Shown here piece by piece: positions 11,516-14,158 of a stretch of 32,000 bases of DNA. Location of the stretch: the NCBI RefSeq assembly GCF_013415485.1, contig NZ_JACBXS010000036.1, positions 1-32,000 of the forward strand, given 5' to 3'. The notes below the pieces were generated by a model that ran no database searches, was not told where the DNA came from, and saw nothing but the letters and a program-made list of their open reading frames with translations. Position 1 is the first letter of the stretch, and each line of letters begins with the position of its first letter. This DNA is from Rhabdonatronobacter sediminivivens. Lineage in GTDB: Bacteria > Pseudomonadota > Alphaproteobacteria > Rhodobacterales > Rhodobacteraceae. The position numbers were made by a program, and so were the translations under genes.

Positions 11516-14158
11516 ATGAAACTGGACGATCAACTCGAAGTCCTCAGGAAATCCCGGCAACTGCATCGCAGATGGTATGCCGAAACCTATGCCGATGCCG
11601 CTGCATCGGGGATGGATCCTGCCGAACATTACCTGCATGAGGGCGCCGCGCGCGGCTTCAACCCGGGCAAGTTCTTCGATACGGATTTCTATCTGGCAAG
11701 CTATCCCGATGTGCTGGCCAGCGGGCTCAATCCGGTGGTGCATTTCGAACTGGTCGGCAGCGCCGAGCGCCGCCTGACCCGGCCGCGCAAGGCCCCCGGC
11801 GCACCCGAGGACATGCTGGCCGAAGATGACATGGCACCGGACTGGACCGAAGGCGCGCATCCCCGGGCCTCGGTTCTGATTGTCCGCGGCGGGGCCCGCG
11901 GGGCGCTGGCCGGGACCGACCTGGGCCCGCGCAACCGGTTCCGGCTGCTGCGCGCGCTCAACAGCGCCGATCCCGCCGCCCCGCAGGACCTGTGCGACCA
12001 GGCGCGGGACCTGTGCGACATGATCGCCCGGCTGCAGATGGAATGGATGCCCGTATCGGAGATTCCGACGGGCAAGGCCACGCCCCTGCCCGCGCTGGAT
12101 GGTCCGGTGGTGGCGGTGATCGGCGATGCCGGCAACAGCCCTGCCGATATCGCCGCATTGACCGCGCTGGCCCGCGCCGAAAACCCGCAGGCCACGCTGG
12201 TGCTGTGCGGCACCGGCCCCGATCCGCAGCCTGACCCGGCCCCACAGGGCGGGCCACAGGACGGGCCACAGAACGGGCCACAGGCTGGTGGCGCGGATGA
12301 GGGTGAGACCATGGTCGCCGAGGCGCCCCCCCTGGCGGATGTCCTGCACACGCAGGCCCCGGTCGAGGCGCTGGCCCGGGCCAGCCGCGCCTATACCCAT
12401 GACGCCCCGGCGGGCATGGATGCGCTGATCCGGGGCGTGCCGCTGACCGTCACCGGTGATCCGTTCTACGCGGGCTGGGGGTTCACCGATGACCGCGCCG
12501 CGCTGCGCGGGCGGGCGCGGGCGATGGATTTCGCGCAGTTCCTGGCCCTGTTGCAGTATTTCGTGCCCGATGCGCTGGCCCGCGATGGCTGGTCCGCCAC
12601 CGCCCTTGAGGACGCGCCCCGGATCGGCGGCTGGCTGGTCGACTGGATCGTATCGGATGACTTCGCCATCCATTACACCGCAGGCGTGATGCGCGACAGT
12701 TTCAGCAAGGACGAGCATTTCAAGCTTGGTCAGCTGTTCGAGAAACGGAAGTTCTGGCGCCGGGCGCGGGCCGCCTATGTCCAGGCCGCCAGTTTCGACC
12801 CGGGCAATGCCCGAATTCATTTCCGCGCCGGCTACATGGCCGAGCGGCGCAAGGAATGGCGCGCGGCCGTCCCCCATTACCGGGTCGCCCTCCGCCTGCT
12901 GCCCGGCAACCCGACCTATCGCTTCCGCATGGGGTTCGCGCTGGAAAAGCAGCGCTTCTGGGAAGAGGCGGTCCATTGCTACGCCGGCGCCCTGTTGCTG
13001 GACAACACCAGCCAGAAGTTCCGCGAGCGGCTGCCCATGGCCCGCACGCTGATGAACTTCGTGCGCGATCACCGCGCGGTCAGCGCCGCGTATCTGTCCG
13101 AACTGCATGACGGCGCCGCCGTGACCACGGCCGACCTGTCGGTCAACGGGGTCTATACGGCGAAATGCCGGCTGCACATGCTGGAACACGAAGGCCGGAA
13201 GACGCGGATCTTCGAGAAGCTGATCATGCCGCACCGGGCGGCCTATGCCCTGCGCGAAGTGATCGCCAACGAGGAACTGGCCAGGCTGGATGTGCCGACC
13301 GATCTGCATTTCCCCGCCCTTCTGGGCGTGATCCGCGCCGAGGACGGTGTGCGCGCCATGTTCTTCGAGAATGTCGAGCTTGCCCCCGAAACCGCCACCG
13401 AAACCGCCACCGGGCGCGCCATCGGGGACCGGGATGGAAGCGGGGACGGCGATGACAGGGCGCGGGCGGTCGAGGCCACGGAGGCGATGGTCGCACCGCT
13501 GACGGCCCTGGCGCTGGCCGATTGCTCCACGATGGCCCTGGACCGGCTGGAAGGGCTCGGCAGTGTCTCGGACGCCGATGAGGAAGAGGCCGAGGACCTG
13601 TTCGGCGAGGTCTATCGCCGCAAGCTTGCCTGCCTGATGGACAGCCCCGAAACCGTGCAGGAGATGGAGCGCTTCATCATCGACAACGCCATCGCCCGCA
13701 AGCGCGACGAAACCGTGACCGATTACGCCACGGAACTGTGCAGCCTGCTGGGCCTGTTGCAGCCGCGGCTGGCGGGCACCTTTGCCGCACTGTCGGCCGT
13801 GCCGGGCCATGGCGATCTGAAGCCCGACAATGTGCTGCGCGACCGCGACGGCAGGCTGGTGCTGATCGACTGGCAGTATCTGGCGCTCATGCCCGCAGGG
13901 TTCGACCTGGCGCGCTTCGCCACCTGGTCGGATCTGGACTGGCACGGCTTCGAGGCGGCGGCGCGCCTTTATGCGCATAATCTGGAAACCCGTTTTCCGG
14001 CGGTGCAGGTGATGTGGTCAAGCTGTCTGTGCTATCTTCTGGATGCGCTGGCGTCGCGGCCGGGATGGGTGCAGGAATCGCATGAGGTTTCGGTGCGCCC
14101 GGCGCTGGCCGCCCTGCGCCGACTGTCGGGCCAGATCACCCTGGGAAGTTCAGAATGA
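11516..14158 (+). CDS. 880-aa multidomain protein: shared N-module, KpsC/KpsS-like (Capsule_synth) domain, TPR, and protein-kinase-like phosphotransferase domain
   Basis: N-terminus [21 protein letters not shown]...[33 protein letters not shown]. The middle, [34 protein letters not shown], resembles the KpsC PFYAGWGLT motif. TPR-like region: [33 protein letters not shown]. The C-terminus has [10 protein letters not shown]...LIDWQY, a kinase catalytic loop. Confidence 0.85.
   Translation: [880 protein letters not shown]
12242..12289 (+). repeat. Imperfect 12-bp x4 in-frame tandem repeat, encoding (PQxG)n linker
   Basis: ccacagggcggg / ccacaggacggg / ccacagaacggg / ccacaggctggt, inside the 880-aa gene. 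Confidence 0.8.
12367..12515 (+). repeat. 149-bp tract, identical except for one base, to 18451-18599 (copy A)
   Basis: Base-by-base comparison at offset 6084 gives a single mismatch, 12457 t versus 18541 c. The flanks diverge immediately on both sides. Confidence 0.9.

Follow-up and report, generated by a model that had tools for sequence, protein, structure and literature searches.

A truncated KpsC-like module, TPR repeats and a kinase-like domain combined in one protein encoded beside hydroxyethylphosphonate genes in Rhabdonatronobacter sediminivivens

Introduction

In Rhabdonatronobacter sediminivivens, a gene whose product joins parts of a capsule glycosyltransferase fold to a kinase-like domain lies directly 3' of genes for hydroxyethylphosphonate (HEP) formation. 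This raises the question of whether one polypeptide adds an ulosonic acid to a glycan and also phosphorylates it or a neighbouring residue, as an initial annotation had suggested, or whether these parts serve other roles. The window, i.e., the whole stretch of 32,000 nucleotides analysed, and the features found in it are summarized in Table 1. In the following, the modules of this 880-aa protein, its paralogue and its genomic context are described, and the possible functions are discussed.

Table 1. Coordinates of the features discussed, with the evidence for each
Feature	Position (nt)	Strand	Residues	Evidence or remark
HEP module: cytidylyltransferase (CyTase)-PEP mutase fusion, Ppd, Fe-ADH	7848..11494	+		TIGR profiles
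CyTase-PEP mutase fusion (Fom1-like architecture)	7848-9179	+
Phosphonopyruvate decarboxylase (Ppd)	9176-10315	+
Fe-alcohol dehydrogenase (Fe-ADH)	10361-11494	+
Whole gene, 880-aa protein	11516..14158	+		ORF, coding GC3, exact database match
N-terminal 'DPxEHY...YPDV...NPxxH(F/Y)' repeat tag, ~95 aa	11516..11800	+		BLASTP
Truncated KpsC-like (GT107-like) module	11912..12568	+	~133-351	Pfam, PDB, custom HMM, AF2, Foldseek
Pro/Gly/Gln/Asp-rich low-complexity insertion	12212..12331	+	~233-272	Composition, AF2, alignment
Gene-conversion tract	12368..12514	+	285-333	146/147 nt identical to 18452-18598
Three TPR repeats	12707..13012	+	~398-499	Pfam, PDB
APH/choline-kinase-type domain	13118..14155	+	~535-880	Pfam-supported part 716-812 (13661-13951)
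Catalytic loop H765-G-D767-L-K-P-D-N772 (Brenner motif HxDxxxxN)	13808..13831	+	765-772	Aligned to LicA loop
L783-I-D785-W-Q-Y788, equivalent to metal-binding 'IDWEY' of choline kinases	13862..13879	+	783-788	Followed by FDLARF 796-801
Coupled partner gene, 799 aa: TPR-like N-half, sulfotransferase-fold-like C-half	14155..16554	+		Sequence similarity
284-aa gene between Fe-ADH and giant genes in both genomes	16446..17300	+		Synteny
Giant paralogue: 1792-aa ORF from 17351, probable true start M77 at 17579	17579..22729	+		Similarity, Pfam

Domain architecture of the 880-aa protein

The gene is a single ORF with an ATG start, and its GC3 lies between 0.63 and 0.93 over the entire length. A purine-rich, RBS-like sequence, GGGGGGACAGG, is located immediately 5' of the start. 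The product is identical to WP_179907008.1 of R. sediminivivens, which is annotated as 'phosphotransferase' and forms a singleton cluster. From the N- to the C-terminus, the protein consists of the tag, a truncated KpsC-like module, three TPRs and an APH/choline-kinase-type domain, and 14 Pfam families are listed for it at E<=1. The strings quoted in the initial annotation were located at residues 203-208 (GDAGNS), 222 (ENPQ), 316-322 (PFYAGWG), 765-772 (HGDLKPDN) and 783-788 (LIDWQY), and both the ORF and the three-part architecture of KpsC-like, TPR and kinase-like regions described there are borne out by Pfam, PDB and custom-HMM matches. The 880-aa protein is a new architecture assembled from known parts. 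It is a singleton among ~15 billion proteins, with no full-length relative in the collections searched, and no precedent for the same combination of KpsC-like, TPR and kinase-like domains was found in any of these collections, in agreement with the earlier remark that no characterised precedent was known.

The TPRs are recognised by TPR_2 (43 bits, GA 27) in three stretches and also by TPR_11/16, and in the PDB they match a consensus TPR (E 2e-24) and the TPRs of OGT (1e-10) and Cps3D (3e-10). As in Cps3D, a TagF-like capsule polymerase (8QOY), the TPR array is placed between enzyme-type modules. Unlike in Cps3D, a stripped KpsC-like fold precedes the array and a kinase domain follows it, and the searches revealed no polymerase domain, TagF-like or other.

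The tag (residues 1-95) is common to four enzymes of the locus. In BLASTP, that of the 880-aa protein matches the 1792-aa giant protein at 58%, a 1017-aa TPR/MptE-like protein at 55% and the GT2 encoded at 1-2497 (-) at 50%, and it matches P0075 at 61%. The order of tag, TPR and catalytic domain is also observed in the 1017-aa protein. No Pfam model matches the tag. Its repeat is widespread and swamped a search of representative sequences.

The KpsC-like module

The resemblance to the C-terminal Rossmann half of KpsC/KpsS that had been noticed earlier is real. Capsule_synth (PF05159) matches with 26.3 bits (GA 20, E 6e-6), at residues 286-332 only, against positions 233-280 of 310 in the profile, and E. 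coli KpsC (8FUX/6MGC) matches residues 280-329 with its residues 223-272 in the PDB (E 1e-8). A custom HMM built from 48 KpsC modules (334 positions) gives E 2e-20 over profile positions 174-290 only, and the resemblance is thus far above chance and confined to part of the module. AF2 models this region confidently only for residues 140-232 and 270-350 and predicts residues 77-137 to be disordered. The best Foldseek matches of the model are KpsC structures (6MGB/6MGC/8FUX, E 1e-8, TMt ~0.4), although this is partly circular because the MSA of the model came from KpsC modules. As in KpsC (GT107; E. coli KpsC-N 6MGC/8FUW/8FUX and T. dismutans 6MGB/6MGD), the module consists of a helical linker and a five-stranded C-terminal Rossmann half, and it shares the ENP helix, the G(F/M)(E/D)AL helix and the PFYAGWG(L/F)TxD motif.

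Retaining beta-Kdo transferases carry the signatures QXXXD and (K/R)XHP, a Ser/Thr pair and an acceptor subdomain (PMC10148158, PMC12887879). The Asp of QXXXD is the invariant nucleophile (D160 in KpsC-N), and the Gln binds the Kdo carboxylate (PMC10148158, PMC12887879). This motif is present in the KpsC proteins of L004 and L005 and in the 48 reference modules but absent from the 880-aa protein, the 1792-aa paralogue and P0075. The custom-HMM alignment begins past it, and in the 880-aa protein the strand VVAVI runs straight into GDAGNS; D204 could be a remnant, yet it is not conserved in the paralogues. In (K/R)XHP, the His binds the CMP phosphate and the Pro stacks on cytosine, and the H227A variant of KrkA is inactive (PMC12887879). 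In the hmmalign alignment, G232-T233-G234-P235 stands opposite K-T-H-P, with the Pro kept and the His absent in all three subfamily members. The 40-residue low-complexity insertion (P 22%, G 20%; AF2 pLDDT <50 for residues 235-268) sits at and beyond this position. Ser271 and Ser272 of KrkA, located before GFEAL, hydrogen-bond the CMP phosphate (PMC12887879). The corresponding T-x-(S/T)-S of KpsC, as placed by the alignment between KrkA and KpsC numbering, stands opposite T294-H295-D296-A297, with Asp-Ala taking the place of the Ser/Thr pair.

The N-terminal part of the module is missing as well. Unlike KpsC, the protein lacks ~85 N-terminal module residues, including the alpha/beta acceptor subdomain with its general base (Glu66, EDGFLRS); profile positions 1-173 are unmatched, and no EDGF or SKYN motif occurs. 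The general-acid position, which is His94 in N-modules and Tyr in C-modules, is Asp135. Genuine KpsC proteins of Ruegeria and Polynucleobacter have QXXXD, the His of (K/R)XHP, the Ser pair and the N-terminal subdomain. The 880-aa protein retains the Pro of the HP motif and YAGWG, and the Glu of GFEAL has an acidic counterpart in D302. A retaining beta-Kdo transferase of GT107 was considered for this module and rejected: Pfam and the fold agree with it, but every catalytic and donor-binding signature is missing. Because QXXXD, the His, the Ser pair and the acceptor subdomain are lost, the module does not pass as a beta-Kdo transferase, and the proposed addition of an ulosonic acid by this polypeptide is not supported. 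Judged from its residues, the module is not a member of GT107 by catalytic criteria. The strongly conserved block with its subfamily-invariant Asp residues could be a ligand-binding or even a novel catalytic site rather than a passive scaffold.

The giant paralogue and gene conversion

The giant protein (~1716-1792 aa, depending on the start) has the same tag and stripped KpsC-like N-terminus; a long helical region comes next, and the C-terminus is sulfotransferase-like. It is 60% identical to P0075, of which M1 lies opposite M77, and 43% identical to residues 1-352 of the 880-aa protein (E 5e-72). The entire Capsule_synth match falls inside a 147-nt tract in which the two genes are nearly identical, indicating gene conversion, and the same tract is, in nucleotides, only 79.6% identical to that of the Pseudorhodobacter orthologue. 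Third-position identity between the two genes is 0.97 inside the tract and 0.3-0.4 in its flanks. This saturation outside the tract indicates that the duplicate is old and has been retained, and by sequence comparison the N-terminal ~350 residues of the 880-aa protein are shown to derive from an ancient duplication of the giant protein's N-terminus. Since the stripped module is also found at the N-terminus of the giant paralogue and of its Pseudorhodobacter orthologue, it appears to be a maintained and reused non-GT module.

The kinase-like domain

The initial annotation described the C-terminal region as an APH/choline-kinase-type domain with a catalytic loop and a metal-binding Asp, and the profile matches, the LicA alignment and the intact motifs agree with this. 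APH (PF01636) matches with 40.9 bits (GA 23.2, E 2.5e-10) against profile positions 126-221 of 239, and with 37.1 bits when the domain is searched in isolation. Choline_kinase (PF01633) reaches 23.1-24.7 bits, below its GA of 29, and covers only the catalytic-loop/IDWEY region. Thiamine kinase (ThiK, TIGR02721) scores 20.1 bits, far under its cut-off of 299, and GntI is also weak. The choline kinase LicA of S. pneumoniae (4R77) aligns with E 0.007 from HGDLKPDN through LIDWQY to FDLA. The similarity to APH/choline-kinase-like enzymes (PF01636, PF01633), including LicA and ThiK, therefore comprises the C-lobe with HGDLxxxN and 'IDW(E)Y ... DLA'.

Unlike LicA and ThiK, which stand alone, the domain is fused to TPRs and other modules, contains an acidic insert of ~80 residues (~620-700) and has Gln in place of the Glu of IDWEY, and no N-lobe similarity was detected. 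The candidate N-lobe (residues 520-640) has no Pfam or PDB match, and K568 (RIFEKLI) and E581 (ALREVI) fit the usual N-lobe Lys/Glu pattern by eye only. The single-sequence AF2 model of the domain has a pLDDT of 37. The closest similarity of the domain in the collections searched is at family level. For the C-terminal half, the searches likewise recovered neither an orthologue nor a close homologue, although the negative is weak for the two of them that missed the protein itself. The suggested likeness to Kdo/WaaP sugar kinases was not supported: PF06293 gives no match at E<=1 in Pfam, with the reservation that HMMER filters may mask very weak ones. The Hanks-type model Pkinase (PF00069) also gives no match at E<=1, IDW is found where DFG is expected, and APE is absent.

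Genomic context

The genes for the CyTase-PEP mutase (CyTase-Ppm), Ppd and Fe-ADH are located directly upstream of the 880-aa gene, which supports the HEP context assigned to it earlier. TIGR02320 (396 bits) and TIGR03297 (467 bits) match this module above their cut-offs, TIGR03405 (292 bits) is the best match yet falls under its cut-off, and the EDKxxxxxNS motif is present. These genes are Fom1/Fom2/FomC-like (PF01467 CyTase-Ppm, Ppd and Fe-ADH), as in the HEP activation of fosfomycin biosynthesis (PMC6697681). In contrast to that pathway, Fom3/Fom4-type genes are absent and the context is glycan synthesis, as the locus also encodes the GT2, a UDP-Glc dehydrogenase, a NeuB-like synthase and two PseF-like CMP-sugar synthetases. 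With the NeuB-like synthase and the two PseF-like enzymes, a CMP-nonulosonate is probably available. To our knowledge, none of the phosphonyl-tailoring (Pnt) or Fom pathways described so far includes a kinase.

An ATGA start/stop overlap at 14155-14158 couples the 880-aa gene translationally to the 799-aa gene. Residues 402-730 of the 799-aa protein are 27% identical to the C-terminus of the 1792-aa protein (E 3e-14), and Sulfotransfer_3 matches it weakly. The 284-aa protein may be class-I methyltransferase-like, given a weak Methyltransf_24 match (E 0.08) and an EFGVAGGNG motif. A Pseudorhodobacter locus has the same operon order of CyTase-Ppm, Ppd, Fe-ADH, 284-aa gene and giant gene, and both the 880-aa gene and its 799-aa partner are absent from it. 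No recognised phosphotransferase (LicD, TagF or Stealth) was detected in either locus. A tail-fibre-like DUF2793 protein is conserved beside the operon.

Possible functions

Multiple explanations can be weighed against these data. A bifunctional enzyme, in which the KpsC-like domain uses a CMP-sugar to add an ulosonic acid such as Kdo and the kinase phosphorylates that residue or a neighbour, is the least probable of them. In its favour, residues ~133-351 match KpsC best in both sequence and fold, a CMP-nonulosonate is probably at hand, and the HP-motif Pro, D302 and YAGWG are retained. Against this, features common to GT99, GT107 and GT140 are missing, namely QXXXD, the His of (K/R)XHP and the Ser pair, as is the acceptor subdomain with its base Glu; moreover, the only Pfam-significant stretch is the gene-conversion tract, and the MptE-like protein is a separate candidate nonulosonate transferase, albeit with a weak match. 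The stripped module might instead read a cytidine nucleotide, specifically binding CMP-HEP and either presenting it to the kinase or transferring the HEP-phosphonyl group itself. Fom1 makes CMP-HEP (PMC6697681), and a Fom1-type fusion is encoded three genes upstream. CMP as a recognition handle has a parallel in fosfomycin biosynthesis, the module is found in one operon-like run with HEP genes in both genomes, and the lack of LicD, TagF and Stealth enzymes leaves room for such a role. The block is also extremely conserved, with the cytosine/ribose-side elements kept and the phosphate-side residues changed to Asp/Gly, which might suit a different chemistry. However, the association is seen in two related genomes only, the known CMP-phosphate-binding residues are lost, Asp at their place would repel the phosphate unless bridged by a metal, and phosphonyl transfer by a KpsC-like fold has no known precedent, so that this reading is unlikely.

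The two remaining alternatives concern the protein as a whole. A chimera produced by duplication and fusion, expressed without a selected function or with pseudo-enzyme domains, would account for the singleton status, the C-terminal half without homologues in the collections searched, the long disordered and low-complexity inserts, the loss of GT motifs and the absence of the gene from a syntenic relative. This by-product has a similarly small chance of being correct, as the 2.6-kb ORF is intact with uniform coding GC3, saturated synonymous divergence from the paralogue implies long retention, the catalytic-loop and metal-binding residues of the kinase are intact, and the gene has an RBS-like sequence near its start and ATGA coupling to the next gene. 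It is highly improbable that the enzyme is directed to a protein, with the TPRs binding a protein substrate, e.g., a surface protein of the flagellin or fibre type that the locus glycosylates, and the kinase-like domain phosphorylating the protein or its glycan. MptE-like Maf proteins glycosylate flagellins, and the locus holds a TPR/MptE-like protein and the tail-fibre-like DUF2793 protein; the TPRs resemble those of OGT, and the loop reads DLKPDN, as in Ser/Thr kinases. Yet Pkinase is unmatched at E<=1, the DFG and APE motifs are absent, IDWQY...FDLA after the catalytic loop is a small-molecule-kinase signature, the MptE-like match is below threshold, and the window contains no flagellin gene.

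The preferred reading, tentatively given somewhat less than an even chance, is that the 880-aa protein is a lineage-specific accessory tailoring kinase of a HEP/nonulosonic-acid surface-glycan pathway. An accessory role, as opposed to a core one, fits the finding that the Pseudorhodobacter locus lacks the gene although it is otherwise syntenic. In this tailoring kinase, the kinase domain would be the sole catalytic part, using ATP-Mg, with the metal bound by N772 and D785 and with D767 as the putative catalytic base, while K568 and E581, guessed from the sequence pattern, are the probable N-lobe residues. The KpsC-like module would transfer neither Kdo nor another ulosonic acid, because it no longer has a nucleophile, donor-phosphate ligands or an acceptor subdomain. 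A docking or recognition scaffold may be formed by this module, the tag and the TPRs, a role suggested for tag and module by their sharing among proteins. Such a scaffold would bring the kinase to the assembly or substrate on which the other tag-bearing enzymes of the locus work, namely the giant paralogue, the GT2 and the TPR/MptE-like protein. The group phosphorylated can be guessed to be a primary hydroxyl; the most attractive candidate, in line with the alternative in the initial annotation of a kinase acting on the hydroxyl of HEP, is the 2-OH of glycan-attached HEP, or else of free or CMP-bound HEP. This guess is made because the nearest specific matches, LicA, choline/ethanolamine kinase and ThiK, which score below threshold, all act on -CH2CH2OH groups.

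Domain Layout of the 880-aa Protein

The 880-aa protein is encoded by a single uninterrupted ORF of 880 codons in an ORF scan of the window, with high GC3 over its full length and a purine-rich stretch 5' of its ATG. It is identical to WP_179907008.1 of Rhabdonatronobacter sediminivivens, annotated as 'phosphotransferase', and is the sole member of its own 90% cluster among ~15 billion proteins. Three Pfam families score above the gathering score, namely Capsule_synth, TPR_2 and APH, and these calls are in agreement with searches of PDB sequences, in which E. coli KpsC matches residues 280-329 (E 1e-8), consensus TPR proteins match with an E-value of 2e-24 and the choline kinase LicA aligns at its catalytic loop and IDWEY motif. 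Given the intact ORF, the Pfam scores and the PDB matches, the three-part fusion of a KpsC-like part, TPRs and a kinase-like domain, which the initial annotation had proposed, is real. A full-length word-indexed search returned the protein itself and partial matches only, with KpsC proteins matching residues ~144-351 and GT2 proteins matching residues 1-95, and no precedent for the domain combination was found in the data searched. The protein is a new architecture, or variant, that is built from known kinds of domain and seen in one genome.

Table. Positions of the features discussed, in the window and in the corresponding locus (L001) of the Pseudorhodobacter MAG GCA_046295215.1
Feature	Window position	Strand	L001 position	Remarks
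Conserved operon-like run, two Rhodobacterales genomes	7848-22729		5338-15118
Tail-fibre-like DUF2793 gene and small phrog_2398 gene	5495-7070	+	2951-4695
880-aa gene	11516-14158	+
Capsule_synth				residues 286-332 only; 26.3 bits, Pfam
TPR_2, three repeats				about residues 398-499; Pfam
APH				residues 716-812; 40.9 bits, Pfam
799-aa partner gene	14155-16554	+		sulfotransferase-fold-like C-half
Giant gene, mechanical ORF	17351-22729	+
147-nt tract	12368-12514 and 18452-18598			residues 285-333 of the 880-aa protein
N-terminal tag	11516-11800; 17579-17860; 30300-30584 (-); ~1960-2230 (-)		10001-10280; inside 15149-18004 (-)
Divergent nonulosonic-acid set	23707-30584	-

The KpsC-like Module

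An HMM with a profile length of 334, built from 48 KpsC modules, matches the protein over profile positions 174-290 only (E 2e-20), and both this HMM and BLAST against KpsC homologues place the homology in the later part of the module only; in a MAFFT alignment, a weaker correspondence reaches back to the 'GIYYD' region at residue ~133. An AF2 model of residues 1-395, for which the input alignment consisted of a paralogue (the giant protein, see below) and 14 KpsC modules, is confident only at residues 140-232 and 270-350, the KpsC-like core, which consists of two helices and then a five-stranded parallel sheet. Disorder is predicted for residues 77-137, 235-268 and 351-395. When this model was compared with the PDB using Foldseek, KpsC structures ranked first (E 1e-8, TM normalised to KpsC ~0.4), a result that is partly circular because the AF2 alignment was drawn from KpsC; the TM value fits a partial module.

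Retaining beta-Kdo transferases are defined by a QXXXD motif, which contains the nucleophilic Asp and a carboxylate-binding Gln, a (K/R)XHP motif, in which His binds the CMP phosphate and Pro stacks on the cytosine, a Ser pair on the CMP phosphate, and a general base from the N-terminal part (PMC10148158, PMC12887879). None of these four features is intact in the 880-aa protein. The QXXXD loop is missing from the module, K-x-H-P is replaced by G232-T233-G234-P235 and then a 40-residue Pro/Gly/Gln-rich insert, D296-A297 stands in place of the Ser pair, and the N-terminal subdomain with EDGFLRS is absent, whereas all defining motifs are present in the genuine KpsC of Ruegeria and Polynucleobacter. 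Since these motifs are lacking, the module is not classed as a Kdo transferase, in spite of its KpsC fold. The cytosine- and ribose-side elements are kept, and conservation of the block [28 protein letters not shown] is very strong. In scans of genome contigs, of metagenome contigs (two scans) and of plasmids (tblastn), one further member only of this stripped KpsC-like subfamily was found.

The fusion itself was confirmed, and the interpretation given in the initial annotation is partly supported. Its suggestion of a dual role, in which the same protein would add an ulosonic acid and then phosphorylate it, is not supported, because the transferase half has lost its catalytic and donor-phosphate residues as well as the acceptor subdomain.

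The Kinase Half

The APH match is limited to the C-lobe of the kinase half. H765-G-D767-L-K-P-D-N772 is a LicA-type catalytic loop, and L783-I-D785-W-Q-Y, followed by FDLARF, is a LicA-type metal-binding 'choline kinase' motif. The next-best models, all below threshold, are Choline_kinase, ThiK, GntI, EcKL and DUF1679, all of which are small-molecule kinases, and neither the Kdo/WaaP model nor the Hanks protein-kinase model of Pfam matched the protein at E<=1. Residues ~535-615 are N-lobe-like by eye, without statistical support (GVYTAK..., RIFEK568LI, ALRE581VI, [9 protein letters not shown]), and AF2 of the kinase domain without an alignment gave a pLDDT of 37. No homologue of the kinase half was found in the window, the Pseudorhodobacter locus, plasmids or JGI metagenomes, and the scans of genome contigs, metagenome contigs and plasmids yielded no relative. 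Word-indexed searches with residues 511-880 were also empty, an unreliable negative because they missed the source protein itself. The database contains this protein, and the full-length query retrieved it.

Origin of the N-Terminal Half

Over residues 1-352, the 880-aa protein shares 43% identity (E 5e-72) with the N-terminal part of the giant protein, the 1792-aa paralogue encoded in the same window. The mechanical ORF of the giant gene begins with TTG at 17351; its real start is probably M77 at 17579, since M77 aligns with M1 of the Pseudorhodobacter orthologue and the alignment with the 880-aa protein also runs from M77. In the 17579-start form, the giant protein is not present as such in the protein collection searched. 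The orthologue (P0075, 1705 aa, from the Pseudorhodobacter MAG) is 60% identical, has the same stripped module and was the one informative match of an exhaustive representative search that was otherwise swamped by the N-terminal repeat. The middle and C-terminal parts of the giant protein gave no PDB sequence matches; the middle may resemble GT9-like domains.

Third-codon-position identity between the two paralogues is saturated (0.3-0.4), indicating that the duplication is old. It rises to 0.97 over residues 285-333, where 146 of the 147 nucleotides are identical; against the Pseudorhodobacter gene, identity over this block reaches only 79.6%. Judged by its sequence, this 147-nt tract is a recent gene conversion, limited to the most conserved KpsC-like motif. 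The entire Capsule_synth match of the 880-aa protein lies inside the tract, which alone gives the Pfam match in both paralogues.

Mis-assembly at the 147-nt repeat was considered and rejected, as both copies have unique flanks and no linear path other than that of the contig takes in every unique segment; either resolution of the repeat still joins the N-module, with its tag and KpsC-like part, to the TPR/kinase part. A second idea was that duplication of the entire giant gene, followed by a split, gave rise to the 880-aa protein and its 799-aa partner. This was rejected because homology is found at the two ends only, in the N-module and the sulfotransferase-like C-terminus, and the TPR/kinase part has no counterpart in the giant protein. 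Tandem duplication is, at most, a partial origin story.

The Phosphonate Operon, the Partner Gene and the Shared Tag

Directly 5' of the 880-aa gene lie a fusion of a cytidylyltransferase (CyTase) and PEP mutase (Ppm) with an EDKxxxxxNS motif, phosphonopyruvate decarboxylase (Ppd) and a phosphonate-type Fe-alcohol dehydrogenase (Fe-ADH). The product of this set is 2-hydroxyethylphosphonate (HEP), and by analogy with Fom1, which is the precedent for CMP-HEP (PMC6697681), the set would also make CMP-HEP. The passing of activated phosphonates to cell-surface glycans after cytidylylation has been called enigmatic (PMC6697681). CyTase-Ppm, Ppd, Fe-ADH, a 284-aa gene and the giant gene (1705-1792 aa) are found in both genomes, and in Pseudorhodobacter they stand in this order behind the DUF2793 gene and a small gene. 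The Pseudorhodobacter locus lacks the 880-aa and 799-aa genes, which are therefore an accessory pair, either gained by the conserved HEP module or lost from it. Neither the window nor the Pseudorhodobacter locus yielded a LicD-, TagF- or Stealth-type transferase. In both genomes the giant protein consists of the N-terminal tag (see below), the stripped KpsC-like module, a helical middle and a sulfotransferase-like end, and it is one candidate for the step using activated HEP. A literature search for KpsC together with phosphonate returned nothing relevant.

The stop codon of the 880-aa gene overlaps the start of the 799-aa gene (ATGA); the conserved 284-aa gene comes next, with the giant gene behind it. 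In its C-terminal half, the 799-aa protein shows homology to the giant protein's sulfotransferase-like C-terminus and contains an RDPRDQ motif that is 3'-phosphate-binding-like. A 5'-PSB-like loop without Lys or Arg is seen in both the partner (YSGSGA) and the giant protein (FSGSGA). At the end of the 799-aa protein, ~65 residues resemble read-through of non-coding DNA and reach ~109 nt into the next gene, so the end given for it is tentative.

The first ~95 residues of the 880-aa protein form a two-unit repeat, or tag (DPxEHY ... YPDV ... NPxxH(F/Y)), that no Pfam model matches. Four proteins in the window carry it (the 880-aa protein, the giant protein, a TPR/MptE-like protein of 1017 aa and the left-edge GT2), and in the Pseudorhodobacter locus it is found in the giant protein and in a GT2. 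It is extremely frequent in large proteins made of many repeats and dominated the representative search, whose top matches had as many as 15 copies each. Within the locus, the layout 'tag - (TPR) - catalytic domain' recurs.

Possible Functions

The most economical reading is that the 880-aa protein is an accessory tailoring kinase. In line with the recurring layout, the tag, the KpsC-derived module and the TPRs would bring the kinase to the assembly or the substrate of other tag-bearing enzymes. Our favoured, if doubtful, guess for its substrate is the 2-OH of HEP, which may be glycan-bound, free or CMP-bound, because the nearest specific kinase matches act on -CH2CH2OH and the gene follows the HEP genes. 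Only minor weight is given to a neutral chimera or to an enzyme directed at a protein.

It is also conceivable that the stripped module itself reads or uses CMP-HEP. The very strong conservation of the block given above, the retained cytosine- and ribose-side elements and the lack of a recognisable phosphonyl transferase in either locus leave room for this. The full form of this proposal is improbable: the module would be a new functional class, derived from a CMP-sugar transferase fold and reading CMP-HEP, and the protein would be a CMP-HEP-directed kinase or part of a phosphonate-installing machinery. As a kinase, it could phosphorylate the 2-OH of a nucleotide-tethered phosphonate, in a Kennedy-pathway-like route to phospho-/phosphono-ethyl decoration; otherwise, it could belong to the long-sought apparatus by which surface glycans receive their phosphonates.

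Instead of a recognisable phosphotransferase of the LicD, TagF or Stealth type, the locus has large multi-domain proteins headed by a KpsC-derived module without glycosyl-transfer residues, and in one of these proteins a hydroxyethyl-kinase-like domain is present. Should CMP-HEP be read by the module, or HEP be the substrate of the kinase, the locus would offer a testable entry into HEP glycan tailoring and a case in which a CMP-sugar transferase fold has taken on a new task. Should the protein be no more than an ordinary tailoring kinase on a docking scaffold, it is a curiosity of singleton architecture, which also shows how the only database-significant 'domain hit' of a protein can arise from a short gene-conversion tract.

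Other Neighbouring Genes

Further to the right, the window encodes an FkbM methyltransferase, two PseF-like CyTases, a NeuB-like synthase, an inositol-monophosphatase-family protein and the TPR/MptE-like protein. CysQ-type PAP phosphatases belong to the inositol-monophosphatase family, and the member encoded here may be relevant to sulfotransfer. All of these proteins other than the FkbM methyltransferase make up a divergent nonulosonic-acid set, in which the NeuB-like synthase has an N-terminal extension of ~245 aa and the two PseF-like CyTases score far below the equivalog cut-offs. The MptE-like (Maf-like) domain of the 1017-aa tag and TPR protein is sub-threshold.

To the left lie a UDP-glucose dehydrogenase, a coiled-coil protein, the GT2 and the tail-fibre-like DUF2793 protein, which matches several PHROG tail-fibre families. 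The DUF2793 protein and a small phrog_2398 protein are encoded directly 5' of ppm in both genomes, making fibre-like genes beside a surface-glycan/phosphonate locus a conserved pairing.
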